Assembly (NCBI GenBank): GCA_000004695.1 | Contig: CM000155.2 | Coordinates: 2,496,001 to 2,560,000, forward strand | Direction: 5' to 3' | DNA length: 64,000 nucleotides | From: Dictyostelium discoideum | Lineage: Eukaryota | Shown: in pieces, positions 21,023-24,000 of the stretch | Position numbering within the stretch: the first letter of the stretch is position 1 | Layout of the letters: each line of letters begins with the position of its first letter | Made by a program: the position numbers and the translations under genes | Notes under the pieces: generated by a model | Database searches by the model: none | The model's input: only the letters and a program-made list of their open reading frames with translations | Told to the model about the DNA's origin: nothing

Positions 21023-24000
21023 TTATTTTAAATTTAAATTATGAACATTAAAATCAGATCTTCTACCTAAAACTAATTTAATTTCTAATACATTTAAATT
21101 CCATTTATAATCTGGTTGATTCCAATATTCTAAAATATCATTTACCTTATCAAAAGTTAATAAATGAACAACTTGTGATAATCTTGTGAATTTATGTCTA
21201 ATATTTTGTTCAGTTGTTATATTACAAAGGAAATCAATGATTTTTCTAATATCCTTTGACAATTGAATTCCACCCAATTGATTGAAACGTTTTTGCATTA
21301 TGAAATCTTCCATGGTTTTTGCGATAAAAGTTGACATTAGATGAATGAGTTGATCGAAATTCTCTGCTATGAATTTTCTTTTATAGGGTTGCAATAATGC
21401 CATCAACTCGGACAAGAAATCCATTGCAAAAGGGTCATTAATTTCATAATTTTCAAATTCCTCATCACCAATTTCATAGTTTGTATTCCTAAATGGCCAA
21501 ATTAATCTTGTAAGTGATGGAGAATTCACCTGAACAATCTTTTTAATATTCTCCTTTAATATATTATCAATACTCTTGGTAACCGTTGAAAATCCATCAC
21601 CATTACCTTCTATACACATAGTGATTGCTTTTCTATCATTTTCATCTTTAAATTTTAAAAATGTTGTTTCTTTTAATTGATCCTTAACTTTATAAATATA
21701 CTCTTTAGTTAATGTTAAATTATTTAATATAATTAAAAATATATCTCTCTTTTTATCAAAATCATCTGAATAATTATATTCTAATAAATTTTCAAAATAC
21801 TTTAAAAAATAAAAAAAAAAAAAATTAAATTAGTATATATAGAATTATTTTTTAAAAATTGAATTTATTTACTTACAGGCATATAAATCATATCAAAATT
21901 TGCTAAAGTCAAATTAATGACAGCACAAGTCGTAGGTGAATTTGATGAAGAGATTGCTCTTCCTGCTACTTTTCTAAAAACAAAAAATATATTATCAACC
22001 ATACTAGATGTATTATTTTCTTGTTCAAATATTAATTGTTGTTGATGTAATTGTTGTTGTTGTTGTAATAATTGCTGTTGTTGCTGCTGTGATTGATGTA
22101 CATTTTTATTATTATTATTATTATTATTGTTATTATTATGGTTATGATTCATTTGATTGACAATAAATCTTCTTAAATCATCATTATATATTGACTAAAT
22201 TTAAAAGTAAGTTTGATGTTGTTATTATTAACTTTTTTCTTTTTTTTTTTTTTTTTTTATTATTTTTTATTACTCATTTTACTGTTTAAACATTCTCTTC
22301 TCCAATCTTTTTTTGCTGAGTCACATTTCAAAAGATAAGAATTTTTTAATTAATCTTTAGTTTTAATTAAAAAGAATAAAGAAAAAAATAAAAAATTCTT
22401 TGTCATTTGAAATGTCACATCAGAAAAAAAGATTGGAGAAGAGAATGTTTCAAAAGTAAAAACAAATAATAAAATTATATATTATATATTTATATAATAT
22501 ATGAATGTATACATACAAATGAAAATGAAAGTTGAAAATATTGAGTTTCAAAAGAAGAATAGTTTGTCATAATCTCTTGAATTTTACTTTTCATATCATT
22601 TAATTGGGGTACTTTTTTATTTGTACTTGTATTACAATGAGTTTGAATATATGAAATGTAACGTTCTGATATCTCTGAAATTGATGAAATTTGATTTAAC
22701 AATTCATCAATTCCCAACAATGGTTGAATTAATTCAATTTCACTTTGACTATATTTAAAATTATTAATTAAATCTTCAATTGATATATTTGCATCTGTTA
22801 ATTTTTTTAACTATTATTAAATAATCATTTGTTAATATTATAAAATCAAAAACAAAAAGTATATATATGATTACCCCACTTACTAAATTTGAATCTTTTA
22901 ATTTTTCTAAAATGATTGAATAAATTTGATCTAAATATTGTGCAGATTGATTATGAAGTGGTAATGTTAAATTATTTGAATTCCATTCAACCAATTTAGT
23001 TTTATACTTTTCAAAGAGGATCATATCATTCCATCGCCATTGATCATTACCAACACGAATTGAGTCTGAAACTTTTTGAACAACACTTGATAAAACTTTT
23101 TTCAAAGCCATTAGACAGTTATCTATTGATTTCACTTTATATTTAATATCATTTAAACTATTGGTAGATGCATCTGAATAACTCTCTGATAATTGTTGAT
23201 TAATTCTTAACATATCTTTAATGATGGGACCACTATCTTGTAGAATCACCTTTCTTTGAAACTGAATGTAGATTACTAAGCCCTCATCTTCTTCACCACT
23301 ATTTTCAAATGTGATTATATTTTGATGTTGATTAGGTATACTTCTAGAAACTAATTTATATTTAATTTGTTGTACAATTGATAAAATTAATGATAATTGT
23401 ATAACTGATTGCTCATTATTTGTTCTCATGGTTTCTTCAGTTTTTGATCTTGTAATTTGATAAAGTTCTTCAATTTTATTTAATGGTGGTATATGATATT
23501 TTTCATAAATTGTATTATAGGTCATATTATTATTATCATTGGTAGATGGTGTTACAATTGGTTTACTAATTGCTTCCATAACTATATATACAAATTGTTT
23601 TAATAATTTTAATCCTTCTTCAAATTCATTCTTATTAACTTTATCTATAATTCTAATTATTAAAATATCTAAACTTGATGATGTATTATTAACTTTCTTT
23701 TTTTAAAAATAAAATAAGTTTTATTTTTTTAAAAAAAAAAAAAAATAAAAAAATAAAAAAAATTATTATTATTATTATTATTATTATTATTATTATTATT
23801 ATTATTATTATTATTATTATTATTATTATTATTATTATTATTATTATTATTATTATTATTATTATTATTATTATTATTATTACTTACTAATGTATTTTTA
23901 AATAATTCTATTTCATTTTTTAAACCATATTCATCCTCATCTTCACTATCATCATTATTATTATTTCTTTGTTGTTGTGGTGTTGTACTTTGTTGTGGTG

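Follow-up and report, generated by a model that had tools for sequence, protein, structure and literature searches.

What is the long inverted repeat that occupies an intron of the cog4 gene of Dictyostelium discoideum, a remnant of a mobile element, a palindrome of the DNA, or the source of small RNAs? The repeat lies in a 64,000-nucleotide (nt) stretch of chromosome 6 (GenBank assembly GCA_000004695.1, contig CM000155.2, positions 2,496,001 to 2,560,000 of the forward strand), hereafter the window, in whose own numbering all positions below are given. An initial annotation, made by reading the DNA letters, had taken it for a miniature inverted-repeat transposable element (MITE) or else for a hairpin-forming element, possibly a precursor of small RNAs. 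Our analysis answers the question in favor of the small RNAs: with a probability of about 0.93, the locus is the published D. discoideum intronic microRNA (miRNA) mir-1180 (mir-1180-1/-2), which is processed by DrnB and has already been known since 2018. What is new with respect to the original description (PMC6161686) is the comparative part, namely the presence of hairpins in the same intron of a divergent assembly labelled D. discoideum and of two D. citrinum assemblies, the absence of the hairpin from D. purpureum and P. violaceum, and the pattern of divergence within the hairpin.

Identity of the hairpin with mir-1180

Two intronic miRNA loci of D. discoideum, mir-1180 and mir-7102, were described by Liao et al. 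2018 (RNA Biol 15:937, PMC6161686), and each of them yields two directly adjacent 5p/3p pairs. Table S1 of that paper places mir-1180 at DDB0232433:2518294-2518442 (chr6) on the minus strand, describes it as "Intron of DDB_G0293106 (sense)", and lists four mature sequences. The mir-1180 precursor printed in Supplementary Figure S2 of the same paper contains the hairpin sequence of the window, and all four published mature RNAs have exact and unique matches in it, on the minus strand and arranged head to tail; the mature sequences were mapped after the homopolymer letters lost in the machine-read text of the PDF had been restored. When converted to the numbering of the window, the published interval becomes 22294-22442 and overshoots each outer mature end by exactly 8 nt, and the chr6 placement of the window to which the published coordinates lead (2,496,001-2,560,000) is an exact multiple of 64,000. 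A search of the literature with the arm sequence as a full-text word gave no match, and the only match was the one in the supplementary PDF of PMC6161686.

The small RNAs of mir-1180 were sequenced, are 21-22 nt long, come entirely from the sense strand and rise in development (PMC6161686). The miRNA criteria of Kozomara & Griffiths-Jones 2014, as applied by Liao et al., ask for a folding energy below -0.2 kcal/mol per nt, a 3' overhang of 0-4 nt, 2 nt being the ideal, and at least 60% of the duplex bases paired, and with respect to the reads for at least 10 per arm, a shared 5' end in at least 50% of them, and dependence on Dicer (DrnB). The published energy of mir-1180 is -0.53 kcal/mol per nt over the 149-nt interval, its pooled reads are 22/14 and 26/53 with common 5' ends of 100%/95%, and the small RNAs are lost in drnB- (PMC6161686). 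In our fold the hairpin at 22270-22470 reaches -0.40 kcal/mol per nt over 201 nt, which is likewise below -0.2, and both duplexes have 2-nt 3' overhangs with 18-20 of their 21-22 nt paired. The 5' end of 1180-1-5p pairs with position 22304 and 1180-1-3p ends at 22302, and the same relation holds at the other end and in the second duplex; at the inner end of duplex 2 the 21-nt form leaves an overhang of 1 nt, and the 22-nt read, which is more abundant, one of 2 nt. The two duplexes abut without a gap, and the lower stem supplies 32 paired nt on the 5' side of mir-1180-1-5p, the 16 nearest of which are perfect.

The published reads and the computed fold together show the sense origin and the phasing of the products. 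The guess that the repeat may be a small-RNA precursor was therefore right, as sequenced, DrnB-dependent RNAs of 21-22 nt map exactly onto the hairpin. A locus for antisense or bidirectional small interfering RNAs (siRNAs) was also considered and rejected, since the published reads are sense-strand and phased. A search for complementary target sites with up to four mismatches returned none in the window besides mir-1180 itself, a search that has almost no power at 64 kb; the D. discoideum genome is about 34 Mb.

The inverted repeat and its fold

A repeat search of the window places the arms at 22277-22351 and 22387-22461, each 75 nt long and 81% complementary to the other, with a spacing of 35 nt. 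They had been described as about 45 bp long at about 90% identity, and this identity holds in an alignment with two 1-nt gaps, whereas the extent does not, the true arms being the 75 nt given above. The 27-bp perfect inverted match is present as claimed, between 22288-22314 on the minus strand and 22424-22450 on the plus strand, and dinucleotide shuffles give an expected number of 0 for such a block. What had been called a 70-bp AT-rich core is mostly base-paired as well. RNA folding of 22270-22470, which the initial annotation had proposed as a check, yields a single continuous hairpin of -80.1 kcal/mol on the minus strand and -76.8 kcal/mol on the plus strand, with z = -14 on both and none of 200 shuffles as stable (0/200), and together with the absence of the 27-nt block from the shuffles this bears out the suspicion that the inverted repeat is beyond chance.

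When the whole window was folded in sliding 200-nt segments on both strands (mean -24.5 kcal/mol, standard deviation 10.4), the mir-1180 hairpin ranked first in stability, at -72.3 kcal/mol and 20% G+C. The runner-up segments are GC-richer coding repeats whose stability is accounted for by their composition (z -1.7 and -2.5). The second most stable fold of the window, at 40651-40850 on the plus strand (-63.1 kcal/mol, z -1.7), is a CAUGGU repeat, coding for His-Gly, within an open reading frame (ORF) of 512 amino acids at 39539-41077; as a candidate structured RNA it was rejected, since composition explains its stability. At gathering thresholds Rfam reports no family anywhere in the window, the mir-1180 hairpin included, and no tRNA genes were found in the window. 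The arms of the hairpin have a G+C content of 23-25%, against 10-11% in the loop and the remaining intron.

The host gene and its intron

The host gene cog4 has five exons, and its spliced model is an open COG4 protein of 817 amino acids with the Pfam domains COG4_m and COG4_C and with COG4 orthologues in dictyostelids. A literature search by the identifier DDB_G0293106 found no papers, and for this reason the name cog4 rests on the Pfam domains and the orthologues and not on a curated gene name. The hairpin was rightly located within an intron of cog4, at 22195-22516, in a host that carries the COG4 domains; it starts 47 nt after the first base of the intron and ends 76 nt before the last. 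The intron size of 322 nt was also correctly given, whereas the neighboring introns, which had been put at about 70-120 bp, include one that is longer, the other introns of cog4 measuring 191, 73 and 77 nt.

The longest of these three is the first intron (23697-23887, minus strand, 191 nt), which starts with GTAAGT followed by about 40 AAT repeats in frame with exon 1, and mechanical ORF calling therefore shows a long poly-Asn tail. How long the poly-Asn tract of exon 1 itself is depends on the assembly (69% identity across the first 76 residues). All along the window the G+C content is about 20%, and its genes are rich in poly-Asn/Gln, as is typical of dictyostelids. Between 14000 and 20000 the G+C content is 15-17%, the GC skew is strongly positive (0.2-0.38) and there are many poly-A/poly-T inverted matches, so that this part looks like a long intergenic or low-complexity region.

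Table 1. Positions in the window of the mir-1180 hairpin, its products and its host gene, with the substitutions that separate the window from the divergent assembly L001 (labelled D. discoideum).
Feature	Positions	Strand	Description	Substitutions, window vs L001
Complete stem-loop of mir-1180 (primary or precursor miRNA, pri-/pre-miRNA)	22271..22469	-	about 85 bp with small bulges; RNA fold	
Published mir-1180 interval	22294..22442	-	Table S1 of PMC6161686; offset inferred, window = chr6 2,496,001-2,560,000	
Lower stem, 5' half	22435..22469	-	below the first DrnB cut; first 16 nt (22435-22450) within the 27-nt perfect block	0/35
mir-1180-1-5p (AAUCUUUUUUUCUGAUGUGACA)	22413..22434	-	5' strand of the duplex nearer the stem base; 20/22 nt paired, 2-nt overhang	0/22
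mir-1180-2-5p (UUUCAAAUGACAAAGAAUUUU)	22392..22412	-	5' strand of the duplex nearer the loop; directly abuts 1180-1-5p	8/19
Upper stem and terminal loop	22345..22391	-	47 nt separating the inner pair of small RNAs; GC 11%	0/47
mir-1180-2-3p (AAAUUCUUAUCUUUUGAAAUG)	22324..22344	-	exact unique match; commonest species in the published reads	3/21
mir-1180-1-3p (UGACUCAGCAAAAAAAGAUUGG)	22302..22323	-	exact unique match	10/22
Lower stem, 3' half	22271..22301	-	RNA fold	
Host intron, third of four in cog4	22195..22516	-	322 nt, GTATGT...TTTAG	
Host gene cog4	21023..24139	-	exons 24139-23888, 23696-22884, 22810-22517, 22194-21877, 21799-21023	

Comparison of the intron across dictyostelids

The cog4 loci that we compared are those of the window, of the divergent assembly labelled D. 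discoideum (L001; GCA_054859355.1, JBTAPG010000023.1), of two D. citrinum assemblies (L002 and L004), of D. purpureum (L003) and of P. violaceum (L005); D. firmibasis and D. intermedium are not included. When the last cog4 exon was used to search proteins, two distant dictyostelid sequences were the only result and no further close species came up, and the JGI matches are intron-less transcripts that are uninformative on the intron. Another assembly labelled D. discoideum (L018; GCA_054883475.1) agrees with the window at 99.9% of positions across 9.4 kb, and the introns of the two do not differ. The orthologous intron is 322 nt long in the window, 303 nt in L001, and 344 nt and 332 nt in D. 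citrinum L002 and L004, and next to the -80.1 kcal/mol of the window the fold of its hairpin reaches -83.5, -58.8 and -46.4 kcal/mol in these three, respectively. In D. purpureum and P. violaceum the intron has 72 nt and 63 nt and holds no hairpin. Because the introns of the last two species are short and the three other genomes carry the hairpin, its origin falls between the divergence of D. purpureum and the later separation of D. discoideum from D. citrinum. About 200-250 nt were then added to an ancestral intron of about 70 nt, and the pairing has been kept while the sequence changed.

The consensus fold of the four-sequence alignment has 55 pairs, 12 of which are changed on both sides, and 95% of its cells are paired; in the controls, 0-2 of 500 shuffles attain these values, and slid registers give 0-3 double changes. 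In all four genomes with the hairpin the sense fold is more stable than the antisense fold, by 2.4 to 15 kcal/mol and partly via G:U pairs, of which L001 has 6 in the sense and 2 in the antisense fold. This common direction is better explained if the sense RNA is what is constrained, and not a palindrome of the DNA.

Uneven divergence within the hairpin

Between the window and L001 (L001:4509-4811 for the intron), about 1-3% of exon positions and 2-5% of those in introns and intergenic DNA are substituted. The hairpin itself is very uneven in this respect (Table 1). Its loop, its lower stem and 1180-1-5p show no differences, whereas 1180-2-5p, 1180-1-3p and 1180-2-3p together are substituted at 21/62 positions, with a binomial P of about 1e-12 at a background of 5%, and the pairing is nevertheless kept. 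Canonical miRNAs conserve their mature arms most and their loop least, and the pattern that mir-1180 presents between the window and L001 is the reverse of this. The two D. citrinum assemblies are without a comparable excess, showing 8% in the hairpin versus 5-6% in the intron flanks.

Possible causes of the excess are diversifying selection on the small RNAs, a role in cis of DrnB cleavage in the control of the cog4 pre-mRNA, selection on the structure only combined with hairpin-templated clustered mutagenesis, or an artefact of the L001 assembly. We consider it rather unlikely, though with some chance of being true, that the hairpin is kept for its structure and not for the sake of a particular small-RNA sequence.

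Two observations may be recorded beside this pattern. The upper stem and loop at 22345-22391 (AUUUUUUUCUUUAUUCUUUUUAAUUAAAACUAAAGAUUAAUUAAAAAAUUCU; alignment columns 150-200) shows no difference in L001 and about 85% conservation in both D. citrinum assemblies, and it is better conserved than the intron flanks, which barely align. L001 as a whole differs from the window by 1-5% substitutions and many insertions and deletions, though it is labelled D. discoideum like L018, and its source may be a cryptic species or a lineage that has diverged.

Proposed processing and its weak points

The mir-1180 hairpin would be transcribed in the sense direction within the cog4 pre-mRNA. We infer this co-transcription because the published reads are all sense and because the 47 intron nt upstream of the hairpin contain no T run like those reported at independent pri-miRNA promoters. 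The stem of about 85 bp would then be recognized in the nucleus by the Dicer-like RNase III DrnB; the double-stranded RNA-binding protein RbdB probably takes part, to judge from its general role. The DrnB dependence of mir-1180 and its double-duplex pattern are the subject of section 2.3 of PMC6161686. On the proposed scheme DrnB would cut stepwise every 21-22 nt and leave about 32 paired nt of lower stem, 16 of them perfect beside the first duplex. The products, as the published reads show and the fold confirms, are mir-1180-1 and mir-1180-2, two duplexes that lie side by side and carry 2-nt 3' overhangs, from which the small RNAs would presumably be loaded into Argonaute.

Several points weigh against the identification of the locus as an miRNA gene processed in this way. 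In the published data mir-1180 is scarce, with 111 raw reads or about 1.2 reads per million; mir-1180-1-3p had 9 reads before pooling, and the 10-read criterion was reached only by pooling older data; and the paper presents no northern blot for mir-1180 and names no target (PMC6161686). Given the long near-perfect stem and the several phased duplexes, the locus could equally be labelled a hairpin-siRNA or a proto-miRNA locus. The mature sequences are unconserved even in the nearest divergent genome, L001, which argues against a conserved target acted on in trans. The covariation comes from just four sequences in two lineages, and the structure on which it was scored was derived from that same alignment. 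Transcription as part of cog4 and the succession of the cuts are both proposals of ours.

Alternative explanations of the inverted repeat

According to the MITE interpretation, a non-autonomous DNA transposon was inserted in the cog4 intron and its inverted repeats now fold into a Dicer substrate, which would be compatible with an miRNA function; we regard it as improbable, though a transposon may have entered the lineage before D. discoideum and D. citrinum separated. The intron has gained about 200-250 nt over the orthologous introns of 72 and 63 nt in D. purpureum and P. violaceum, the arms, at 23-25% GC, look foreign next to the loop and the remaining intron at 10-11%, and the DNA transposon thug-S is a documented source of miRNAs in D. 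discoideum. The composition of the arms and the added length do allow a foreign origin; an inverted duplication of genic sequence accounts for both equally well. For all boundary pairs (22255-22299 x 22440-22484), no target-site duplication of 3-10 nt stands beside the inverted termini, where there are only ATTA and TAT in low-complexity sequence, which speaks against a MITE, although an old insertion could have lost its duplication. Neither the window nor the related dictyostelid loci, about 40 kb of sequence, contain a second copy, each orthologous locus having one, and a scan of public metagenomes with the conserved 20-mer gave nine single-arm chance matches only, on contigs of 32-61% GC. 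Moreover, PMC6161686 gives mir-1180 as one locus, among the intronic miRNAs and apart from the multicopy thug-S loci. The position of the element is fixed in five genomes, and in D. citrinum the same intron combines a strongly diverged sequence with preserved pairing, as expected of an old resident structure and not of a recent mobile insertion. Terminal inverted repeats are present trivially, the whole element being an inverted repeat, and do not tell a MITE from a hairpin gene. With no target-site duplication, no second copy in the DNA searched (the window and the related loci) and a locus that its authors class as intronic, the MITE label of the initial annotation is unsupported.

Young MIRNA genes of plants have been proposed to arise by inverted duplication, and their hallmark is a long and nearly perfect stem from which several phased products are cut. 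For mir-1180, which has both the near-perfect stem and the phased products, we tentatively entertain an origin of this kind, in which a local or dispersed inverted duplication of genic sequence, possibly of a future target gene, produced what is now a young and fast-evolving proto-miRNA. The arm GC of 23-25% is like that of the exons of the D. discoideum genome rather than its introns, some reading frames of the arms are open for 26-27 codons, and the restriction to the clade of D. discoideum and D. citrinum fits a recent origin; however, open frames of this length are not significant, and the window contains no donor sequence with up to 3-4 mismatches allowed. It is doubtful that the structure is retained for an action in cis, by which the hairpin or its cleavage by DrnB would modulate the splicing or stability of the cog4 pre-mRNA and the small RNAs would be by-products. 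Such an action is consistent with pairing that is kept across lineages while the small-RNA sequences change fastest and the loop slowest, with the very low abundance of the small RNAs, and with sense-strand folds that are always the more stable, but the cog4 genes of D. purpureum and P. violaceum do without the hairpin, and concerted evolution of the palindrome arms in DNA could likewise keep the pairing. That we are dealing with a local DNA palindrome without RNA function, produced or maintained by replication slippage or template switching, and with reads that are noise, is very hard to believe: both strands fold almost equally well in the genome of the window and the read counts are low, yet the reads have precise 5' ends, 21-22-nt phasing, 2-nt overhangs and DrnB dependence, and the divergent genomes keep the pairing partly by G:U, which is unpaired on the opposite strand or as DNA. 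A mirtron was rejected as well, given hairpin ends 47 and 76 nt inside the splice sites and the dependence on DrnB.

Relation to known systems and significance

With ddi-mir-1180-1/-2 (PMC6161686) the locus shares sequence, strand, host intron and mature products, and the window shows no difference from it. Its nearest analogue is ddi-mir-7102-1/-2, in an intron of DDB_G0284713, which is likewise intronic, sense and formed by a long hairpin with two adjacent DrnB-dependent 5p/3p pairs; unlike mir-1180, it lies on another chromosome, has reads of 816 and 1176 versus 22-53, and yields unrelated mature sequences, for which reason the two are not members of one repeat family. Young plant MIRNA loci and the long plant hairpins that are diced step by step, of the miR159/319 type and of proto-miRNAs, resemble mir-1180 in that a long stem is cut successively and in phase by one nuclear Dicer-like enzyme, in the roughly 16 perfect bp of lower stem under the first duplex, and in their rapid turnover between close species. 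In contrast to plant MIRNAs, mir-1180 sits inside a protein-coding gene, in one of its introns, a location commoner among animals, and the likeness is one of function without homology. A comparison with animal miRNA-offset RNAs (moRs) was drawn by Liao et al. themselves (PMC6161686). The thug-S-derived miRNAs also come from a hairpin, thug-S being a repeat related to DNA transposons (Avesson et al. 2012; Meier et al. 2016, PMC4894637), but the thug-S loci are multicopy, whereas mir-1180 is reported as single and intronic and has neither a target-site duplication nor a second copy in the DNA searched. With mirtrons it shares the intronic precursor; unlike them, it needs DrnB for both cuts, and splicing cannot define the ends of its precursor because about 47 and 76 nt separate the hairpin from the splice sites.

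Publication of the locus, with its small RNAs and their DrnB dependence, dates from 2018, and our comparative results are a small addition to it. As a check, the case has a value of its own, in that the single true miRNA hairpin of 64 kb of very AT-rich DNA was recognized from the letters alone. Dictyostelid miRNAs are reported to be almost all restricted to single species, and within group 4 only mir-1177 is reported as conserved (Edelbroek et al. 2024, PMC11014262); the examined parts of the text and supplements of that study do not mention mir-1180. That D. citrinum has kept the mir-1180 hairpin slightly qualifies the statement that only mir-1177 is conserved, and does so at the level of structure, as drawn from genome sequence. 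If the hairpin is indeed kept for its structure, mir-1180 would be, after mir-1177, the second Dictyostelium miRNA hairpin retained beyond one species. The locus thus offers a case for asking how young intronic miRNA hairpins arise, and whether it is their structure or their sequence that is selected.

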